Part shown: piece after piece, positions 1-55,237 of the stretch
Layout: each line of letters begins with the position of its first letter
Numbering within the stretch: the stretch's first letter is position 1
Notes under the pieces: generated by a model
The model's input: the letters and a program-made list of their open reading frames with translations, nothing else
What the model was told of the DNA's origin: nothing
Databases searched by the model: none
Position numbers and translations under genes: made by a program
Source of the DNA: a virus
Taxonomy: Duplodnaviria; Caudoviricetes
Strand: one strand, 5' to 3'
Virus record (IMG/VR): IMGVR_UViG_3300020201_000024
Span: 1 to 55,237 of that record
DNA: 55,237 bases

Positions 1-191
1 GCAAGGCCCACGTGTCCGACAACGCCCAAGTGTCATCCACCGCCCGTGTGTACGGCAACGCCCGCGTGTACGGCATCGCCCAAGTGTCCGGCGACGCCAT
101 TGTGTCCGGCTACGCCCGTGTGTACGGCGACGCCGAAGTGTCCGGCTACGCCTGCGTGTACGGCGATATCTCAGGCAAGGAGCAGGAGTGA
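1..191 (+). CDS. Hexapeptide-repeat beta-helix protein, 3' part (probably the end of the gene starting at 54624, or an extra copy)
   Basis: Frame starting at nt 3 reads KAHVSDNAQVSSTARVYGNAR...VYGDISGKEQE* (TGA 189-191); same C-terminus as its paralogs. Confidence 0.85.
   Translation, partial: KAHVSDNAQVSSTARVYGNARVYGIAQVSGDAIVSGYARVYGDAEVSGYACVYGDISGKEQE
20..145 (+). repeat. 126-bp terminal direct repeat, identical to 55112-55237 (circularisation or assembly overlap)
   Basis: caacgcccaagtgtcatccacc...gaagtgtccgg occurs at both ends; the preceding 19 nt differ. Confidence 0.85.
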
Positions 192-194
192 AAT

Positions 195-671
195 ATGAAA
201 TTCAAATTTACAGACGAGACTAGGATTACCCCCTCCGGGGAAACTATTTACCGCATTGAAGCTATTGAGGATATCCCTAGCCGAGGGGTTAAAGTTGGAG
301 ACAAAGGGGGATTTGTTGGTAAATCTGCTCAGGTAACTGGTGATGCATGGGTGTATGACAACGCCCGTGTGACCGACAACACCCAAGTGTACGGCAACGC
401 CCAAGTGTACGGCAACGCATGGGTGTCCGGCAACGCCCGAGTGTACGGCAAGGCCCACGTGTCCGACAACGCCCAAGTGTACGGCGACGCACACGTGTCC
501 GGCAAAGCCAAAGTGTACGGCTACGCCCTTGTGTACGGCTACGCCCGTGTGTACGGCAACGCCCAAGTGTACGGCTACGCATGGGTGTCCAGCAAAGCCC
601 GTGTGTACGGCAACGCCCAAGTGTCCGACAACGCCCAAGTGTCCGGCGATATCTCAGGCGCGGCACCATGA
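195..671 (+). CDS. Hexapeptide-repeat (VxGxAx) beta-helix protein, 16 units
   Basis: Conserved 52-aa head MKFKFTDETR...GDKGGFVGKSAQVTGDAW followed by VYGNAR-type repeats; SD-like AAGGAG/CAGGAG upstream. Confidence 0.9.
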   Translation: MKFKFTDETRITPSGETIYRIEAIEDIPSRGVKVGDKGGFVGKSAQVTGDAWVYDNARVTDNTQVYGNAQVYGNAWVSGNARVYGKAHVSDNAQVYGDAHVSGKAKVYGYALVYGYARVYGNAQVYGYAWVSSKARVYGNAQVSDNAQVSGDISGAAP

Positions 672-10451: not shown

Positions 10452-13400
10452 ATGAAGGTAACTAAGAAAAAGTTCGCAGATGGAGGCGCTACGTATGGAG
10501 CTAAGCCTACTACGATTGAAGAAAGCTCTGTGGATGGAGCTAAGCATATTACGATTAAAGGGGGCCCTACGTATGAAGCTAAGCCTACTACGATTGAAGG
10601 GGGCTCTGTGTATGGAGCTAAGCCTATTACGATTGAAGAGGCCCTTCTCTCTATGCAAAAGCGAGATATTGCCAATACGATAGGCCACCAAGTCTATCCC
10701 GCCCCTAACCCCGCTTACTTTGAACCTAAATATGGAGCTAAGCCTATTACGATTGAAGAGGCCCTTCTCTCTATGCAAAAGCGAAATATGGCCAATACGA
10801 TAGGCCAAGCCTATCCCGCCCGTAACCCCGCTTACTTTGACCCTAAAGATGAGGCGTTAGAGAATCCTCTGTTTAGCCCAGAGGACTTGGTAGCACTGCC
10901 TGCGGACCTCGCGGCTAAGGGTGTTATGCGTGTTGGAGAAGCTGCGGCGCCCTATGTGAAGGCCGGGGCTAAGGCTATAGGTAGAGGCGCTGCGGCGCTT
11001 ATGGAAGACGAGTCAGGTAACCTAGGCCGTAAAGGTGTTCAAGCCCTTATGCCAGAGCTTCCCCCTGAAGTCCCTATGTACTCTAAACTGGAGGAAACGG
11101 TTAATTCTAAAATCCGTCAATCCATGCCCAGTGAGTATGTTAAAGCTACCCTCAAAAATGCAGGCGTCACTGCGGACGAGCTAGAAGTTTATGGGGTGGA
11201 CGGATTTTTAAAAGGTAAAAAAACCGTAACCCCCGAAGAACTAAAAGAGTTTGTTAAAAATAATCGCCCCAATATTGAAAAACACTCTTATGGCGATAAA
11301 ATTGAGAAGTTTGACGATGCAGGCATTCCGGAGGATTTTGAAATATCCGACAGGGACATAGCTAGATCGTGGGATAACTTAGAAGATAAAGATGACTTTG
11401 ATGAGGCGTGGATGGAGTACCGAGACACCCTCAGGTCCGAACACTCCGACAATCCGATAAACAGGTTTAAAGTTGAGCCCGTAGAAACGCGCGGAGGCTC
11501 TACTAAATACGTTTTAGATTTAGGGGATGAAGAGTTTACTACGGGGTACGGGCAACGCCGTAAATCACACACCGGCAGCTTAGAGTTTGGTACTGAAGAC
11601 GAAGCGCAAAGCGTTTTAAATGATATTATAGATAACTGGGAAGAGGGCTTTGAGCTTTCTGATCAAGACACCGCCAACGTAGCGGCGCCCTTTATTGAAG
11701 CTCACGGCGTGCAAGTGCGCCGGGAGGCTTGGGAACGGGCTTTAGAGGAAAACCCCGACTTAGCCCCTCCCGCCAAAAGTCTCCCCGATGGGGCGCTCAA
11801 AAGGGCAGAGGCGCCCCTTAGCGGGAAAACTAAATATAAAAATTACACGTTAGAGGGGGGAGAAAATTACCGTGAGGACCTCTTTACCGGCCCAAGCAAG
11901 ACTTCATTTACGGCGGAGCGAGCAGAGAAGGACTTCCGCAGCGTAGTAGCTAAGACTGAAGACTCTCTTACCCTAAAAGGGGTCGATACGCACAGTCCGG
12001 AAATGGCAGAGTACGTCGATACCTTACGCGACTCCGCAAAAGTAGAGGATAAAGAGGTTGTAAAAGCCTATGATGCGGTTGTCCCCCCTTGGAAGCGCAC
12101 TGCTAAGTTAACTATTTCTCAAAAAGAAGCCCAACTTGAGGAACTTGAGGGCGAACTCGACGGTATAAACAGCGGGTATGAGGCAAAAAAAGATGAAATC
12201 CTACGCGACGCGGTTGAGGCGTCGCAGGAGTCGTCGGTTGCTCAATTAGAAACACTTGATGCTCAAAGAGATCTTGCGGCGGAGCTTAATCGGGACAAAC
12301 GCGTCAAATTACGCAAGGATACTGCAGATTTAAGACTATCTCTTGAAAACACTTCGGGTGAATACAAGGGTTCCCATTTTGGCGACCGCCAGCCCAATAT
12401 CTTTGTGCACGCACGCACTACCGAGCGCGACCTTCCGGGCGTTGGTAAATCTTTGCACGTAGAAGAGATCCAGTCAGACGGGCATCAAGAGGCGCGGAAG
12501 GTCGGCTATGTGGGTGAAGCCGCCAAGCCTTACACAGGTATTGTATTTGGGCAGGAAGTACAAGATGCGCACTTAGCTAAGATGCAAGGTCAACTTGACG
12601 AATACATGCGTAAGCACAACCTCACAGACCGCACTTCGGCCTTGTCGCAAGCGGAGCAAGCGGGAGTATTTAACCCCCAGGACATGCAAAAGCTGGCAGA
12701 TATCCAATCCTATAAACTTCACCAAGAAAACCCTTCCGGTATTCCTGAAATGATTATGGCTAAAGGTTGGGAAGACCATGGCTTTAAGCGGTCTTTGCAG
12801 AAAGCTGTTGATCAAGACAAGGATTACCTGACCTGGAATACGGGCGAAATTTCCGCCAGGATTAACAGTACTCCCAAAGAAGGACATGAGGGGCAAAAAT
12901 TTGCGTATGATAAAAAATACCCTGGAATTATTAAACGGTTAATTAATCAATTTGACTCTAGCATTACAGTAGAGAAGGTACGAGTAGGAACTGGAGAAGG
13001 CAAGACGGCGGAAGTTTGGGGCATCAAGCTCACCCCTAAGCTTAAAAATGCTCTACGCAAAAAAGGATTTGCTAACTTTGCATCAGGCGGTATGGTTGGC
13101 TACGCGAATGGCGGCGGGGTTGTAGGCAGTCAACCAGGAGACAATGGAACCTTAATTCCTTATGATGCCGCTCCTACCGATGCTGCTCCTACCGATGTTA
13201 TTGACCCCTATACTCCCGATCCAATTGATCAACAATCTTCAGATGTTAACGTAATTACCCCCGAAGGAGACCTCGTCTCTATCCCCCAGGAGAGTCTGGC
13301 GCAAGCGTTACAGCTTGGATACTCTCACGCGCCACAGCAACAGGTTGAAAATCACTTTCAACAGAAGAAATATGGCGCTGCGGGGCAGCAAGCTATTGCC

Positions 13401-17355: not shown

Positions 17356-18534
17356 ATGAGTCAAGCATACTTCTACCCCCCATCGGGCGGCTCTAACGCC
17401 TCTGTAGGCCCTAACGGCGCCCCTATTCAATCATCAAGCACCCTAGTGGCAGGAGAGAGCCCTACGGGTACCCAACTGCCTCTATCCGTTAACGCCAGCG
17501 GCGACCTAATCATTGACGTGCTTACTCCCGCCTCAGTCGTTACCGTGGTGCAGCCCAACGGTGCACTGCTACACGTTACGGTGGATGCGTCCGCCTTGCC
17601 CCTAGGCGCTGCGACGGAAGCTAAGCAGGATACAGGTAACGCCTCCCTAGCGGCTATTGACGTTTCTACGGTTTCTATTGATACCAAAACCCCTGCGCAA
17701 GGGCAGGCCCTTATGGCCGCCTCTGTGCCCGTGGTTATTGCCTCTGATCAAAGCACTTTGCCTATTTCCGCCGCTTCTCTTCCTTTACCTTCGGGCGCGG
17801 CTACAGAAACTACCCTAGCGGCTATTGATACCAAAACCCCTGCGCAAGGGCAGGCCCTTATGGCCGCCTCTGTGCCCGTGGTTATTGCTTCTAATCAGAG
17901 TGTTTTGCCCGTATCGGCTGCTTCTTTGCCCCTACCTTCGGGCGCGGCTACTGCGGCTAACCAGGCCACCGAGATAGCCTCTTTGGCCAGCTTAGATACT
18001 AAGCTGCCTGCTCAAGGGCAAGCCCTTATGGCGGCTTCGGTGCCGGTTACGCTCGCTTCTGACCAAACCACGTTGCCTGTGTCTATTGCCTCTCTTCCCT
18101 TGCCTGCCGGGGGGGCTACTGAGGCTACTTTGGCGGCTATCTCTGCTCAATTGCCTGCGGTTTTAGGTCAAACCACGGCGGCAAATAGCTTATCCGTCAC
18201 TTTGGCCTCTGACCAGGCAGCACTTCCCGTTACTGCGGCTACTCCGGTAGCTTTGACTATTACAAACGCTGCTATTACTGTGGGGGTCACCGCTGTGAGG
18301 CTCACGGTGTCTGGCGGCGCCCCTGCCGTTACCCGGGTAGCTTTGGTAGTTACTCCAGACTCCTTGTCCGGTGCTTTGTTTTACATTGGCTCTAGCTCGG
18401 TTACAAATTCAGGAGCTACTAGAGGCGTTCAAATAGCCGCAGGTCAAACTTTTATTGCTAATAACGACGCTGGCGACTATTGGATTGTTTCTAGCGTAGC
18501 CGCGCAGACCGTGGAAGTTATGGAGCAAGCATAA
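17356..18534 (+). CDS. Fibre protein with ~50-aa internal repeats
   Basis: Repeats LPLPSGAATE..IDTKTPAQGQALMAASVPVVIASDQ; DNA repeat at 17675 and 17822. Confidence 0.65.
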   Translation: MSQAYFYPPSGGSNASVGPNGAPIQSSSTLVAGESPTGTQLPLSVNASGDLIIDVLTPASVVTVVQPNGALLHVTVDASALPLGAATEAKQDTGNASLAAIDVSTVSIDTKTPAQGQALMAASVPVVIASDQSTLPISAASLPLPSGAATETTLAAIDTKTPAQGQALMAASVPVVIASNQSVLPVSAASLPLPSGAATAANQATEIASLASLDTKLPAQGQALMAASVPVTLASDQTTLPVSIASLPLPAGGATEATLAAISAQLPAVLGQTTAANSLSVTLASDQAALPVTAATPVALTITNAAITVGVTAVRLTVSGGAPAVTRVALVVTPDSLSGALFYIGSSSVTNSGATRGVQIAAGQTFIANNDAGDYWIVSSVAAQTVEVMEQA

Positions 18535-23974: not shown

Positions 23975-24595
23975 ATGTTAAAAATTGTGTTATTTTTGTA
24001 TGTTTTTCTCTTTTCCTTCAATTCTTTTGCGTTGCAAGTAAAAGCCAAAAAAATTAACTTAGAGCTACGAACGATTAAAATCGCGCATATTCAAGGAAAA
24101 ATAGACGACATCTCCGCTACCTTATTTGAAACAGAAGTGATTCACACTGCGAATGTTCCGGGGCCGCGCCTTGTAGTGATTAACTCCCCTGGTGGGCATG
24201 TTGATTCGGGAGAGCGTATGATTAGGGTTATGAAAGCCGAACAATCTCGCGGTGTTAAATACGTGTGTGTGATTGTAGGCGACGGCGCTAGTATGGCGTT
24301 TAACTTTTTTACTCTTTGCGATGTTAGGCTTGCAGTAAAAACCGCTCATTTTCTATTTCACAAAATAGCCCTTGCAAAAGAAGGCATCCCGTCCCATGTA
24401 AGGCTAACGGCGCAAACATTGAGGCGGGTTGCTGATATGCTGGACGCAGAGGACGAAAAATACCGGATTGGTAACGCTTTTGCCTTGAGTCTGTCTCTTA
24501 GCGTGTATGATAATCTGGCGGCGGCAGATATCGAATGGAACACTTCTGAGTTGTTAAACAACGGTTACCTGCACGGCGTAGCAACTCTTGACTAA
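23975..24595 (+). CDS. ClpP/crotonase-fold serine protease-like protein with signal peptide
   Basis: IQGKID, INSPGG.V, GASMA (catalytic Ser), FLFH (His); N-terminal hydrophobic segment ending SFA. Confidence 0.7.
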   Translation: MLKIVLFLYVFLFSFNSFALQVKAKKINLELRTIKIAHIQGKIDDISATLFETEVIHTANVPGPRLVVINSPGGHVDSGERMIRVMKAEQSRGVKYVCVIVGDGASMAFNFFTLCDVRLAVKTAHFLFHKIALAKEGIPSHVRLTAQTLRRVADMLDAEDEKYRIGNAFALSLSLSVYDNLAAADIEWNTSELLNNGYLHGVATLD

Positions 24596-25029
24596 TGCGT
24601 AAAATTAACATTGCTGGAGTTGCCCTAATTAAAGAGTTTGAAGGGTGCAAGCTAGAGGCGTATAAATGCCCCGCCGGTGTGTGGACTATAGGGTATGGGC
24701 ATACGGGGGCAGAGGTTGTAAAAGGATGTAAAATTGACCTCGACACCGCTGGCGAGATTTTAGATAAAGATTTGACCAACTTTTCCGTGGGTGTAGATAA
24801 ACTAGTCACTAACAAAACTATTACTTCTAATGAATTTTCCGCTATGTGTTCGTTTGCTTTTAACGTAGGTCTAGGCAATTTTAAAGCTTCCACACTGCTT
24901 CGGTGTGTCAATAAGTTTAACACTGAGGGGGGGGCGGGGGAGTTTATGCGTTGGAATTTAGTTCGGGGTATTATCTCTCCTGGCCTGGTTAGACGCCGCG
25001 AAGCTGAACGCGCTTTATTTGTGTCTTAG
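24595..25029 (+). CDS. Endolysin, GH24 lysozyme
   Basis: LIKEFEG..L.AYKCPAGVWTIGYGHT; FAFNVG; GLVRRREAE. Confidence 0.95.
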   Translation: MRKINIAGVALIKEFEGCKLEAYKCPAGVWTIGYGHTGAEVVKGCKIDLDTAGEILDKDLTNFSVGVDKLVTNKTITSNEFSAMCSFAFNVGLGNFKASTLLRCVNKFNTEGGAGEFMRWNLVRGIISPGLVRRREAERALFVS

Positions 25030-25180: not shown

Positions 25181-25660
25181 TCACTCCTGCTCTTTGCCTG
25201 AGATATCGCCGGACACGCGGGCGTGGCCGGACACTTCGGCGATGCCGAACACGCAGGCGTTGTCGGACACGTGGGCGTTGCCGTACACCCATGCGTAGCC
25301 GTACACACGGGCGTTGCCGTACACGCAGGCGTAGCCGTACACTTGGGCGTTGTCGGACACTTGGGCGTCGCCGCACACCCATGCGTTGTCGTACACTTCG
25401 GCGTTGCCGGACACGCAGGCGTTGCCATACACTTGGGTGTTGTCGGTCACACGGGCGTTGCCGAACACGTTGGCGTTGCCGAACACGCAGGCGTTGTCGG
25501 ACACCCATGCCTCACCCGTTACCTGGGCAGATTTACCAACAAATCCACCTTTGTCTCCAACTTTAACCCCATGGATAAAGATATCCTCAATAGCTTCAAT
25601 GCGGTAAATAGTTTCTTCGTAGGGGGTAATCCTAGTCTCGTCTGTAAATTTAAATTTCAC
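25181..25660 (-). CDS. Hexapeptide-repeat beta-helix protein, 16 units
   Basis: True start is GTG 25660, overlapping the TGA of the upstream paralog (GTGA); same head and GDISGKEQE tail. Confidence 0.88.
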   Translation of the reverse strand: MKFKFTDETRITPYEETIYRIEAIEDIFIHGVKVGDKGGFVGKSAQVTGEAWVSDNACVFGNANVFGNARVTDNTQVYGNACVSGNAEVYDNAWVCGDAQVSDNAQVYGYACVYGNARVYGYAWVYGNAHVSDNACVFGIAEVSGHARVSGDISGKEQE

Positions 25661-26520
25661 TCCTGCTCCTTGCCTGAGATATCGCCGTACACCCGTGCGT
25701 AGCCGTACACTTGGGCTTTGCCGGTCACTTGGGCGTAGACGGACACTTCGGCGTCGCCGTACACGTGGGCGTTGTCGGTTATGAGGGCGTTGCCGAACAC
25801 ACGGGCTTTGCCGTACACTTGGGCTTTGCCGGTCACTTGGGCGTAGACGGACACTTCGGCGATGCCGTACACTCGGGCGTTGCCGCGCACTTGGGCGTCG
25901 CCGAACACTCGGGCGTTGCTGCGCACTTGGGCGTTGCCGTACACGTGGGCGTTGCCGTACACTCGGGCGTCGCCGTACACGCGGGCGTTGCCGTACACTC
26001 GGGCGTCGACGAGCACTTGGGCGTTGCCGCCCACACGTGCGTTGCCGTACACCCGTGCGTTGCCGTACACTAGGGCTTTGCCGTCCACGTGGGCGTTGCC
26101 GTACACTCGGGCGTAGTCGAGCACTCGGGCTTCGCCGTACACCCGTGCGTTGTCGGACACGATGGCGTGGCCGGACACTCGGGCGTCGCCGGACACGTGG
26201 GCGTCGCCGTGCATCCACACGTTGTCGGACACGCAGGCGTTGCCATACACTTGGGTGTTGTCGGTCACACGGGCGTAGCCAAACACAAGGGCTTCGCCGT
26301 ACACCCACACGTTGTCGGACAAGTAGGCGTTGCCGTACACCCGTGCGTTGCCGGACACCCATGCATCACCCGTTACCTGCGCAGATTTACCAACAAACCC
26401 CCCTTTGTCTCCAACTCTAACTCTAACTCCCCGGCTAAAAATATCCTCAATAGCCTCAATACGGTAAATAGTTTCACCGGAGGGGGTAATCCTAGTCTCG
26501 TCTGTAAATTTAAATTTCAT
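25657..26520 (-). CDS. Hexapeptide-repeat beta-helix protein, 37 units
   Basis: Same head and tail; 287 aa. Confidence 0.9.
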   Translation of the reverse strand: MKFKFTDETRITPSGETIYRIEAIEDIFSRGVRVRVGDKGGFVGKSAQVTGDAWVSGNARVYGNAYLSDNVWVYGEALVFGYARVTDNTQVYGNACVSDNVWMHGDAHVSGDARVSGHAIVSDNARVYGEARVLDYARVYGNAHVDGKALVYGNARVYGNARVGGNAQVLVDARVYGNARVYGDARVYGNAHVYGNAQVRSNARVFGDAQVRGNARVYGIAEVSVYAQVTGKAQVYGKARVFGNALITDNAHVYGDAEVSVYAQVTGKAQVYGYARVYGDISGKEQE

Positions 26521-26523
26521 ATA

Positions 26524-27057
26524 TTACTCCTGCTCCTTGCCTGAGATATCGCCGTACACGTGGGCGTCGCCGGACACGCAGGCGTTGCCGTACACTCGGG
26601 CGACGCCGTACACTTGGGATTTGCCGGACACACGGGCGGTGCCGGACACTTGGGCGTTGCCGTACACTTGGGCGTTGTCGTACACGGGGGCGTTGTCGGT
26701 CACACGGGCGTTGCCGGACACCCACGCGTCGCCAAACACCCACGCGTCGCCGGACACAATGGCGTTGCCAAACACACGGGCGCTGCCGAACACACGGGCG
26801 TTGCCGGACACACGGGCGTTGCCAAACACACGGGCGCTGCCGGACACCCACGCGTCGCCGTACACTTGGGCGTTGTCGGACACTTGGGCGTCGCCGTACA
26901 CCCATGCATCACCAGTTACCTGAGCAGATTTACCAACAAATCCCCCTTTGTCTCCAACTTTAACCCCTTGGCTAGGGATATCTTCAATAGCTTCAATACG
27001 GTAAATAGTTTCACCGGAGGGGGTAATCCTAGTCTCGTCTGTAAATTTAAATTTCAT
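26524..27057 (-). CDS. Hexapeptide-repeat beta-helix protein, 19 units
   Basis: Same head and tail; ATGA overlap with the helicase stop. Confidence 0.9.
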   Translation of the reverse strand: MKFKFTDETRITPSGETIYRIEAIEDIPSQGVKVGDKGGFVGKSAQVTGDAWVYGDAQVSDNAQVYGDAWVSGSARVFGNARVSGNARVFGSARVFGNAIVSGDAWVFGDAWVSGNARVTDNAPVYDNAQVYGNAQVSGTARVSGKSQVYGVARVYGNACVSGDAHVYGDISGKEQE

Positions 27058-28361
27058 ATTAAAACTACCTCAATTCCAAATTCTTCTCTAAGAATTTTAC
27101 GCTGACAGTTGTAATGGTCTCTAGTCCATTTGTGGGAAGGGTCTTTAAACAAAATGACCTTGCAAGTATCCTTACCTGGATACATCCTAAACCCTCTGCC
27201 AACCCATTGCAAGAACGAATTTTTAGCTTTACCTAACCCCGCGATAATAATGTACTCCGCAGGCTTGGTATCTACCCCCTCCCCCAAAACTCCCGTAGTT
27301 CCAATCAGTACGTTTAACTTTCTGGAGGTAAATTTGGCTATAAGATCTTTAGAGTTATTGGATACCCCGTTAGCAAACGGCATGCCTGTAAGTTGAGAGA
27401 GAATGTCCCCGTGTTCAATTTCTTTTACCAGGCAAAGGGCGCTTTTACCCGCATCTTGTAACATCTTAAGTTGATTGGAGATTAACTCATTGCGGTGCTG
27501 GTTCCTAATTACCGCCTGCGTGTATACGGCCCGCCAAGTGGTGCCGGTATACGTTACCCGGGGTAACTCGTAGACATACGCCTCTACAGGGCATATGAGT
27601 CTTTTAGCGACCGCATGCGCGTGAGGTACCCGGTAGGCTACCCCCGCGATAAGGCTCTCCATTAGAATGTTTTCCTCCTCTTGGGACCTAAAAGGTGTCG
27701 CCGTAAGGCCGCAGCGGTAGTAGATAGTGCTGCCTATTGTTTTATTGATCTGGCGGTAGGTTTTGGCGGCTGCGTGATGGTACTCGTCTAGTATCATCAT
27801 GCCGTAGTTTAGCCCGGTTGTTTTGTTTTCTATAGCATCAATATTTTCAACTGCAATTAGCGCGCCCCAAGGGCCTACGTCTAAACCGGGGAAAAACTCC
27901 CGCAAGCTGCTAGTAAGCTGCTCCTTCAGGTTCAGGTTAGGCACCACAATAAGCGTCGGTACGTTTATAGCTTCGATAAGAAGCGCAATGACAACTGACT
28001 TACCCACCCCGGTAGATGCGACTAGTACCCCCTGGTGTGCGCGCTTTAGAGCCTGCACCATGGCGGTCTGCTCCTCGTAAGGGGTAAAGGGTAGGCGGAG
28101 CATGAAGGGCGTCGTGTGGGGGCTAGGAATGGCCCTATTGTCATTTAGAGAGAGGGTCCAGCCTTGATGCTCTGCTAAAACAACTAAGCGGAGAAGGAGG
28201 CCGGTAGCAAAGTGACCTTTTTTGTCAATCAAAGGCTTACGGTAGTTTACGCCATAAAAACTTTTGGGCGGCAAGTAGGACAACTCCCGACGGATGAGGG
28301 CGAACTGAGCCGCGGTGTACCCCTCAACCCTCGAAACAGAATTGTTTACCGTGACCTGCAT
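27054..28361 (-). CDS. Superfamily 2 DExH helicase (UvsW-like)
   Basis: Walker A TGVGKS, DEYHH, GLTATP, GEGVD, QWVGRGFR. Confidence 0.9.
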   Translation of the reverse strand: MQVTVNNSVSRVEGYTAAQFALIRRELSYLPPKSFYGVNYRKPLIDKKGHFATGLLLRLVVLAEHQGWTLSLNDNRAIPSPHTTPFMLRLPFTPYEEQTAMVQALKRAHQGVLVASTGVGKSVVIALLIEAINVPTLIVVPNLNLKEQLTSSLREFFPGLDVGPWGALIAVENIDAIENKTTGLNYGMMILDEYHHAAAKTYRQINKTIGSTIYYRCGLTATPFRSQEEENILMESLIAGVAYRVPHAHAVAKRLICPVEAYVYELPRVTYTGTTWRAVYTQAVIRNQHRNELISNQLKMLQDAGKSALCLVKEIEHGDILSQLTGMPFANGVSNNSKDLIAKFTSRKLNVLIGTTGVLGEGVDTKPAEYIIIAGLGKAKNSFLQWVGRGFRMYPGKDTCKVILFKDPSHKWTRDHYNCQRKILREEFGIEVVLI

Positions 28362-29210: not shown

Positions 29211-29531
29211 ATGAAAAAAATCACTGAAATTCAGTTGAAGGAGATCCTAGCTAAGCATTTGGAATGGTTGAAAAATCCCGAAGAGGGGGAACGTGCAAAC
29301 CTAAGCGGCGCGGACCTAAGCAACACGGACCTAAGCAACGCGGAGCTTAGCTATGCGGACCTTCGCGATGCGGACCTCGGTAAGGCAGACCTAAGCAACG
29401 CAAACCTTAGATGTGCAAACCTTAGATTTGCAAACCTCGCTGGTGCGGACCTCTACTGCACCGACCTTCGCGATGCGGACCTAGGATATGCGTACCTCTA
29501 CGGCGCGAACCTGCGCGGTACAAAGTTCTAA
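29211..29531 (+). CDS. Pentapeptide repeat protein 1
   Basis: A[DN]Lxx repeats after MKKITEIQLKEILAKHLEW. Confidence 0.92.
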   Translation: MKKITEIQLKEILAKHLEWLKNPEEGERANLSGADLSNTDLSNAELSYADLRDADLGKADLSNANLRCANLRFANLAGADLYCTDLRDADLGYAYLYGANLRGTKF

Positions 29532-43753: not shown

Positions 43754-44245
43754 ATGAAAAAAATCACTGAAATTGAGTTGAAGGAAATCCTAGCTAAGCA
43801 TTTGGAATGGTTTAATACTGGCAAGGGGGAACGTGCAAACCTTAGCAATACGGATCTAAGCTATGCGGACCTTAGCGGTGCGAACCTCCGTAAAGCGAAC
43901 CTCTGCGGTGCGGGGCTTTGTGGTGCAAAACTCAGCTTTGCGGACCTTTGCGGCGCAAACCTAAGCGGAGCGAACCTCTGCCAGGCGGATCTAAGCAATG
44001 CGGGCCTAGCCTTTGCGTACCTAATCGACGCAAACCTAAGCTTTGCGAACCTCAGCGGCGCAAACCTCCGCCGTGCGGACCTAAGCTTTGCGGACCTCTA
44101 CGGTGCGAACCTCCGCCGTGCGGATTTAAGCAACGCGCACATACACGACGCGGACCTCAGTAAGGCGGACCTAGGCGGTGCGGACCCCTACAGCGCATAT
44201 ATGTACGGCGCAAAGCTTCCTATCAAACTTAAGGGGACCAAATGA
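43754..44245 (+). CDS. Pentapeptide repeat protein 2
   Basis: A[DN]Lxx repeats; head nearly identical to the 29211 gene. Confidence 0.92.
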   Translation: MKKITEIELKEILAKHLEWFNTGKGERANLSNTDLSYADLSGANLRKANLCGAGLCGAKLSFADLCGANLSGANLCQADLSNAGLAFAYLIDANLSFANLSGANLRRADLSFADLYGANLRRADLSNAHIHDADLSKADLGGADPYSAYMYGAKLPIKLKGTK

Positions 44246-54623: not shown

Positions 54624-55237
54624 ATGAAATTTAAATTTACAGACGAGACCAAGACTAGCCTCACCGGTGAAACTATTTACCGCATTGAAGCTATTGAGGA
54701 TATCCCTAGCCAAAGGGTTAAAGTTGGAGACAAAGGGGGATTTGTTGGTAAATCTGCTCAGGTAACGGGTGATGCATGGGTGTCCGGCAACGCCCGAGTG
54801 TACGGCAACGCCCACGTGTCCGGCAACGCCGAAGTGTCCGGCGACGCCCACGTGTACGGCGACGCCCACGTGTACGGCAACGCCCACGTGTCCGGCTACG
54901 CCTTTGTGTCCGGCAACGCCCAAGTGTCATCCACCGCCCAAGTGTCCGGCGACTCCCTTGTGTCCGGCAACGCCCAAGTGTACGGCAACGCCCTTGTGTG
55001 CGGCGACGCATGGGTGTCCGGCAACGCCTGCGTGTCCGGCGACGCCCACGTGTACGGCGACGCCCACGTGTACGGCAACGCCCGCGTGTACGGCGACGCA
55101 TGGGTGTCCGGCAACGCCCAAGTGTCATCCACCGCCCGTGTGTACGGCAACGCCCGCGTGTACGGCATCGCCCAAGTGTCCGGCGACGCCATTGTGTCCG
55201 GCTACGCCCGTGTGTACGGCGACGCCGAAGTGTCCGG
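54624..55237 (+). CDS. Hexapeptide-repeat beta-helix protein (runs off the end; 219 aa, 26 units if joined to 146-191)
   Basis: MKFKFTDETKTSLTGETIYRIEAIEDIPSQRVKVGDKGGFVGKSAQVTGDAW followed by repeats; frame open to the window end. Confidence 0.88.
   Translation, partial: MKFKFTDETKTSLTGETIYRIEAIEDIPSQRVKVGDKGGFVGKSAQVTGDAWVSGNARVYGNAHVSGNAEVSGDAHVYGDAHVYGNAHVSGYAFVSGNAQVSSTAQVSGDSLVSGNAQVYGNALVCGDAWVSGNACVSGDAHVYGDAHVYGNARVYGDAWVSGNAQVSSTARVYGNARVYGIAQVSGDAIVSGYARVYGDAEVS

Follow-up and report, generated by a model that had tools for sequence, protein, structure and literature searches.

Five paralogous genes of a tailed virus (Duplodnaviria; Caudoviricetes; IMG/VR virus record IMGVR_UViG_3300020201_000024) carry tandem arrays of 18-nucleotide units encoding V-x-G-x-A-x hexapeptides, in which the silent sites of the scaffold residues are nearly uniform within an array and differ from one lineage to the next, while a small stock of single-base variants at residues 2, 4 and 6 is found at intermediate frequency in nearly every lineage. 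The window, by which we mean the whole stretch of DNA analysed, is the entire record of 55,237 bases. Concerted evolution through copying between units and between paralogues, combined with protein-level selection for a mix of residues, is probably the explanation of this pattern. The arrays add a very clear and very widely distributed case to a mode of evolution already known, and they are not a mutator system.

Period-18 arrays occupy positions 54780-55237, 1-164, 351-647, 25208-25504, 25682-26358 and 26551-26901, six stretches that make up five paralogous genes, labelled A to E. Each paralogue consists of a conserved 46-residue N-terminal domain, 17-38 hexapeptide units and a short tail after the array (180-191, 660-671, 25181-25195, 25657-25670 and 26524-26540):

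54624..55237, with the 3' end at 1..191, plus strand: gene A, a 46-codon N-terminal domain followed by 18-nucleotide units from 54762
146-191, plus strand: 3' part of gene A, lying at the window start after the terminal overlap, stop codon at 189-191; the related contig L011 bridges the junction
195..671, plus strand: gene B, 158 amino acids, 17 units (333-638)
26524..27057, minus strand: gene C, 177 amino acids, 20 units (26560-26919)
25657..26520, minus strand: gene D, 287 amino acids, 38 units (25693-26376)
25181..25660, minus strand: gene E, 159 amino acids, 17 units (25217-25522)

Splitting the arrays of the window gave 126 units. Six that duplicate the terminal overlap were left out, as was the first unit of each gene, which is always VTGDAW written in ordinary codons (GTA, GGT, GAT), leaving a core of 115. 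Across this core, per-site entropy is 0-0.13 bit at unit sites 2, 3, 9 and 14, as opposed to 1.59, 1.34, 1.21, 1.40 and 1.89 bit at sites 5, 10, 16, 17 and 18. Together with the codon counts, these values bear out the proposal of an earlier note on this DNA that a scaffold repeated some 115 times is nearly invariant at its silent sites, and that variation is confined to residues 2, 4 and 6.

Codon use was compared with a background of 13,110 codons from 30 other open reading frames (ORFs) of the window, where third-position GC content is 0.52. Valine is GTG at 114 of 118 unit positions (background 0.19; binomial P = 1.5e-77, a test that assumes independent units, which these are not, the comparison between lineages being the better control). 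Glycine is GGC in 90 of 90 cases (background 0.42), asparagine AAC in 60 of 60 (0.64), aspartate GAC in 42 of 42 and glutamine CAA in 28 of 28 (0.55), and for valine and these four residues the earlier statement that units almost never vary at synonymous sites stands. Caveats apply to arginine at residue 6, which is spread over four codons (CGT 16, CGA 10, CGC 6, CGG 4), to alanine, which is GCC in 93 of 108 (background 0.32) and GCA or GCG in the other 15, and to the few units with TAT (3, against 58 TAC among 61 tyrosines) or TTT for phenylalanine (5). Serine is TCC in 44 of 50 (background 0.19). In the N-terminal domains encoded by the same genes, codons are of the ordinary, AT-ending kind; 10 of the 46 codons vary between paralogues in silent changes alone, and silent third-position diversity there, 0.12, lies above that of scaffold sites 3 and 9.

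The same organization extends far beyond this phage. Relatives are encoded in 531 of 536 IMG/VR candidate stretches; the best 80 loci of these 531, less one dropped for an N, were combined with the window into a viral set of 80 arrays and 2195 units. Silent scaffold sites 3, 6, 9, 12 and 15 have a mean within-array diversity of 0.04-0.08, with 65-78% of arrays monomorphic, as against a diversity of 0.36-0.70 for the majority base compared between arrays. The scaffold codons are thus invariant within nearly every locus and differ between loci (GTG/GTC/GTT/GTA; GGC/GGT/GGA/GGG; GCC/GCT/GCA/GCG). Genomic loci concur: of 80 loci in bacterial and archaeal genomes, 12 had fewer than 10 units, and the within-array pattern recurs in the remaining 68 (1325 units); it is also found in the cultured phages Sfi19 (orf229), Acidovorax AP1 and Mycobacterium Boilgate (gp64).

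Between lineages the scaffold diverges freely. Its third bases form 40 haplotypes among the 80 arrays, and the count of GC-ending scaffold codons rises with the GC content of the locus (Spearman 0.80, P = 6e-19). Silent identity of the scaffold tracks that of the N-terminal domain (0.73 versus 0.64, 0.85 versus 0.85, 0.93 versus 1.00 and 1.00 versus 0.99, in small bins of 51, 15, 28 and 14 pairs, respectively, beyond which identity saturates at about 0.45); silent changes shared by a whole array therefore build up between lineages about as fast as ordinary silent changes do.

These observations bear on the idea that the silent sites are held by a nucleotide-level function, be it an overlapping reading frame, an RNA or DNA structure or a CRISPR-like array. 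The arrays can be read through in all six frames, ORFs in other frames or on the opposite strand are annotated in database records, and Vibrio phage records place 'CRISPR_spacer' features over homologous arrays. Against this, scaffold third bases vary from lineage to lineage, in step with GC content and at the silent rate of divergence, and only the V-x-G-x-A-x frame matches Pfam and PHROG models together with the N-terminal domain. The units also abut without spacers, and since they do so in frame, inside a gene that matches protein families, a CRISPR array was rejected. We regard a nucleotide-level function of any kind as very improbable.

The variable sites behave in the opposite way to the silent ones. 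At sites 5, 10, 16 and 17, within-array diversity is 0.44-0.52, and monomorphic arrays make up 0-1% of the set. Of the 80 arrays, 57 have the alleles A/C (Tyr/Ser) at site 5, 77 have A/G (Asn/Asp) at site 10, 52 have C/T at site 16 and 68 have A/G at site 17; combined, sites 16 and 17 encode Gln, Arg and Trp, and their fourth combination would be a stop codon. The major allele at these four sites has a median frequency of 0.59-0.65 and reaches at least 0.9 in only 0-8 of 80 arrays, a level attained by silent sites in 67-74 of 80. The variants are single-base alleles on a common background: Tyr and Ser codons have a common third base in 99 of 104 arrays, as do Asn and Asp codons in 130 of 133, and Ser is encoded TCN in 1100 of 1101 units. 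The third base of codon 6 is G in 73 of 80 viral and 66 of 68 genomic arrays at any GC content, which fits a homogenized third base held at G by Trp (TGG) units; the window lineage, together with the related contigs L011, L012 and L013, is exceptional in showing all four bases at site 18.

Because the variants stand at intermediate frequency in nearly every lineage, either hypermutation or selection for a mix of residues has to be invoked. The earlier note had remarked on a resemblance to diversity-generating retroelements (DGRs), in which a reverse transcriptase would copy a template repeat and errors at adenines would rewrite the variable sites. With TAC, AAC and CAA as consensus, four of the five most variable sites are indeed adenines, and the scaffold codons GTG, GGC and GCC have none. 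That template, however, is an arbitrary choice of consensus, the window having C in 49 and A in 49 units at site 5, and G in 53 and A in 51 at site 17. Across the 80 arrays the variable sites are essentially two-allelic, not A-to-any-base, and site 16 is a C/T polymorphism in 52 of them. Where adenine occupies a four-fold silent scaffold site (in GTA, GCA or GGA arrays), it persists in 559 of 574 units, with 14 of the 15 losses coming from one array, as against 502 of 789 for the variable-site adenines of the same arrays; site 11 retains its adenine in 2088 of 2195 units. No match to the reverse transcriptase family PF00078 was found at E <= 1 in the 55,237-base record, which CheckV rates as 100% complete, and a retroelement would have to serve five target genes of differing length, of which no template copy is seen. 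Units with Trp or CGG-encoded Arg moreover bring their own alanine codon, as set out below, and hence spread by descent. The resemblance thus finds no support, and DGR-like targeted mutagenesis has, in our judgement, almost no chance of being the explanation.

The alanine codon serves as a silent marker within the unit. All 13 window units with TGG or CGG at codon 6 have GCA or GCG before it, and none of the 93 GCC units has either of these sixth codons (Fisher P = 5e-15). Gene C has its own GCG form and gene D its own GCA-CGG form; in other lineages (L029, L079, L085) different alanine codons are linked to different sixth codons, and Sfi19 pairs GCT with GAG. Association between sites decays within the unit, r2 being 0.40 for sites 16-17, 0.17 for 10-16, 0.15 for 5-10 and 0.08 for 5-16, where about 0.05 is expected under independence. 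A silent marker that is linked to codon 6, with linkage that decays over so short a distance, points to recombinational shuffling: the variants spread by descent and were then shuffled between units. Avoidance of restriction sites was considered as the reason for GCA before TGG or CGG and rejected, no genome-wide avoidance being apparent (CCWGG, 98 sites versus 119.5 +/- 9.3 expected; CCSGG, 116 versus 131.4 +/- 12.7 expected). Other arrays pair other alanine codons with TGG, which likewise favours linkage by descent over site avoidance.

Three independent metagenome contigs (L011, L012 and L013), 98.7-99.5% identical to the window across genes A-B, D-E and their flanks (megablast), allow the process to be viewed over a short time span. 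Unit numbers are identical in all. Within the arrays, 22 of 2088 bases differ (1.05%; 116 unit comparisons), compared with 0.57%, 0.59% and 0.88% outside the arrays. Sites 5, 10 and 16-18 account for 15 of the 22 differences (2.6% of such sites), silent scaffold sites for five (0.86%) and other sites for two (0.2%). Some form conversion-like patches of several bases: four adjacent bases are changed in unit 4 of gene A, turning GCC-CAC into GCA-TGG, and units 4-6 of gene E hold 8 changes. The 144-base N-terminal domain of gene D (26377-26520) differs from that of L012 by 10 mismatches and a 6-base indel, and the L012 version resembles the other paralogues, which looks like conversion between paralogues outside the repeats. 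Changed codons are replacement to silent 13:5 in the arrays versus 6:21 outside (Fisher P = 0.0017), the outside classes being taken from the L011 and L013 flanks with three differences unassigned.

The arrays are therefore not hypermutating: change proceeds at about the background rate and is concentrated where units differ from one another, exactly what copying between units would yield. Taken together, the linkage data, the patches and the modest rates contradict site-specific hypermutation. In a different account, each array would have arisen by a recent slippage burst of whole units from one founder and then acquired point mutations under positive selection, with no ongoing copying. Such bursts are suggested by the varying unit number of the paralogues (17 to 38), by a 108-nucleotide higher-order period in the array of gene D and by a slight excess of identical 18-mers at lags of 2, 4 and 6 units (z 2.1-2.5). 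They would, however, have had to occur independently and recently in nearly all of some 150 lineages, each time with identical polymorphisms at intermediate frequency. Multi-base patches and an altered gene D N-terminal domain at constant unit number indicate conversion, and silent markers whose linkage to codon 6 decays within the unit indicate recombinational shuffling. Slippage as the whole explanation is, to our minds, unlikely.

Under concerted evolution, the units of an array, and those of paralogous arrays, would copy sequence onto one another by gene conversion or template switching, with occasional multi-unit duplication besides; the choice of copying enzymes is one that we infer. A new silent change would soon be lost or spread through the whole array, leaving one codon per scaffold residue in each phage, and scaffold codons would come to differ from phage to phage. 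The same copying would also move a small stock of one-base variants, Y/S at site 5, N/D at site 10 and Q/R/W with others at sites 16-18, giving rise to a shuffled mosaic and to an apparent excess of amino-acid changes. Were the outward sites neutral, they would be swept as clean as the silent ones, and we infer that selection keeps a mix of Tyr/Ser, Asn/Asp and Gln/Arg/Trp-type residues at positions 2, 4 and 6. Silent differences, which would serve equally well if DNA heterogeneity were all that mattered, are absent, so that selection would not be merely for heterogeneity of the DNA. Homogenization at the DNA level, as the earlier note had proposed, is supported by silent sites that are fixed within arrays and different between lineages, by their divergence at about the ordinary silent rate and by the patches seen among close relatives; its further suggestion that homogeneity exists in order to preserve recombination homology is dispensable, a by-product of copying being the simpler account.

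Several points weigh against this interpretation. Unit order is near random, and Y/S, N/D, Q/R/W or whole 18-mers over lags 1-7 give no lag-3 (one-turn) signal of the kind that would suggest a structural cause; beyond the identical 18-mers mentioned above, the only deviation is a weak one for position 6 at lag 1 (z -2.9). No gain or loss of units is seen among the close relatives, and unequal exchange itself was not observed. The comparison of relatives rests on 22 differences, of which those at single sites are inseparable from point mutation. Arrays were detected through their amino-acid pattern, so that conservation of residues 1, 3 and 5 was imposed, although that of their codons was not; and kinship among loci (L011-L013 with the window; L046, L048 and L049; L077 and L078) means that counts of arrays are not independent. 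The case for selection on the residue mix is a symmetry argument between silent and outward sites, and on the structure models residues 2, 4 and 6 are no more than candidates for outward-facing positions.

Repeat arrays invite assembly error, and the record contains an instance of it. Bases 1-33 are identical to 448-480, inside gene B, and an assembly path that strays through that gene has left the window's first 19 bases chimeric. It might be supposed on this ground that short-read assemblers collapsed or invented the repeat mosaic as a whole. The pattern is nevertheless present in cultured phages, including Sfi19, whose genome was presumably Sanger-sequenced, and in complete bacterial chromosomes, and the three related contigs match the window arrays unit for unit; an artefact of assembly can be dismissed with near certainty. 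The record, whose topology class in IMG/VR is 'linear', has a terminal overlap in which bases 20-145 exactly repeat 55112-55237, and L011 spans the window end into the window start without a break. The end overlap and the bridged junction together establish that the genome is circular or terminally redundant, with a length of about 55,092 bases. The closest genome hits are scattered across many phyla, and none is close to the window phage.

Protein family searches place the paralogues among beta-solenoid proteins. In a Pfam scan of A, B, C and D, the YdcK beta-solenoid repeat model PF18836 (gathering cut-off 30 bits) scored 106.5 bits for D, 94.1 for A, 88.5 for C and 69.4 for B. Phage protein families of unknown function, PHROG 5070 (A, E 8.7e-71; C, E 5.2e-58; B, E 6.6e-52) and PHROG 7964 (D, E 7.8e-85), match A-D from residue 2 on, across both the N-terminal domain and the repeats (matches from E 7.8e-85 to 3.8e-50). 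Gene D also matches PDB 2f9c, Salmonella YdcK (E 1.5e-13), and the hexapeptide V-x-G-x-A-x repeat is common to the window genes and the YdcK family (PF18836; PDB 2f9c/2pig; NF040481). The NCBIfam YdcK equivalog model NF040481 gives 62-83 bits for B, C, D and E (gene E versus NCBIfam YdcK_fam, 63.3 bits), below the curated cut-off of 350; on these scores, the window proteins appear to be relatives, not equivalogs, of cellular YdcK.

Other families were also compared. The left-handed beta-helix acyl/acetyltransferases (LpxA, LpxD, GlmU) are three-faced solenoids whose active site lies between the subunits of a trimer. Their Pfam Hexapep model PF00132 stayed below its cut-off of 27 with 17.5 and 14.2 bits, and LpxA and LpxD chains of the PDB match weakly (E 5.8e-05 to 6e-04). 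The bactofilin model PF04519 (cut-off 27.9 bits) was exceeded by D (44.8) and A (35.9) and missed by B (26.8) and C (25.6), and it scores far under the YdcK repeat model on the same residues. Nothing in the PADLOC defence-system library was matched by B, C or D. An AlphaFold model built with a 24-sequence alignment had a mean predicted local distance difference test score (pLDDT) of 46.6, and about 32 over the repeats; a single-sequence model reached 77.3. A Foldseek search with the single-sequence model returned no match at E <= 0.001. With VIA-align, left-handed beta-helix (LbH) chains had the top Z scores (12.8-16.1) but a root-mean-square deviation of about 11.7 A, and right-handed solenoids superposed at 2.2-3.6 A. 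A beta-solenoid fold of the family is thus supported; it may be of either handedness, and residues 2, 4 and 6 may face outward.

An additional C-terminal domain of some 60-80 residues is present in the homologues of Sfi19, AP1 and Boilgate, and the window paralogues end a few residues past the array; the latter may represent a truncated subfamily, or the C-terminal domain may be supplied elsewhere. In public records, an AP1 ORF (L092) is called on the opposite strand, and Sfi19 (L091) has a second ORF in another frame inside orf229.

Comparable evolutionary behaviour is known from other systems. Transcription activator-like (TAL) effector genes of Xanthomonas consist of near-identical DNA repeats that vary at defined codons, through recombination between repeats and selection on the variable residues; their units are 102 bp long and have one variable residue pair that reads DNA bases. 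The window arrays share with them near-identical DNA repeats and variation limited to defined codons, and differ in having 18-bp units, three variable residues and several paralogues per phage genome. The DGR of Bordetella phage BPP-1 (Mtd type) likewise varies a phage protein at a few codons on a constant scaffold. The window genes are similar in just this respect, unlike it in lacking any detected reverse transcriptase, template repeat or adenine specificity, and have two alleles per site. In spider silk proteins (spidroins), intragenic concerted evolution reportedly keeps repeat units alike at the DNA level (PMC3933166). Silk units are long and homogenized whole, and shared polymorphisms maintained at fixed sites are not the theme there.

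The family is present in cultured phages of Streptococcus, Mycobacterium, Xanthomonas, Vibrio and Liberibacter and in genomes of many phyla. Its arrays amount to a clean natural experiment, in which homogenization is recorded at silent sites and a polymorphism that has outlasted deep divergence is recorded at four nucleotide sites. That such a polymorphism is kept suggests that selection favours a mix of residues on the surface of the solenoid, and so offers a handle on the role of these early phage proteins. A speculative and rather doubtful extension of this idea makes the arrays a means of varying the protein surface combinatorially, driven by recombination: selection would keep a minimal alphabet (Tyr/Ser, Asn/Asp, Gln/Arg/Trp) at three exposed positions per unit across hundreds of phage lineages and copying would re-deal it, so that each lineage and each paralogue would show a different binding face. 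With this face the phage would engage a rapidly evolving component of the host, or evade it, at an early stage of infection. A literature search that covered articles without their supplementary files returned nothing on the function or repeat evolution of the YdcK-type phage family. Annotation is also misled by the arrays: ORFs are assigned to the wrong strand or frame, homologous arrays receive 'CRISPR_spacer' features, and contig ends are broken or chimeric within arrays.

Two neighbouring genes flank the C-D-E cluster:

27054..28361, minus strand: DNA helicase gene (PHROG 16, E 2.9e-51), directly upstream of C-D-E on the same strand
24595..25029, plus strand: endolysin gene (PHROG 7, E 5.4e-52), convergent with gene E

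A major head protein gene lies upstream of gene A, and family members adjoin replication or regulatory genes in the records examined. Within the cluster, the GTG start of gene E overlaps the stop codon of gene D (25657-25660), an arrangement found alike in L012; the A-B and C-D junctions, unlike the D-E overlap, consist of a 3-base gap followed by ATG. A link to the 'CRISPR array' of Liberibacter prophages (PMC4711790) was considered and dropped: the homologue in phage SC2 lies about 1 kb from the primase gene, and its identity with the ORF of that paper could not be confirmed.

The window contains further tandem repeats. Two 15-base-period arrays of pentapeptide type, at 29293-29437 and 43864-44158 inside other ORFs, are less regular (61-76% matches). 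Tandem periods of 39, 78 and 120 bases occur at 10483-10851 inside an ORF of 1834 residues, and a 147-base period at 17675-17951 runs from a 392-residue ORF at 17356-18534.

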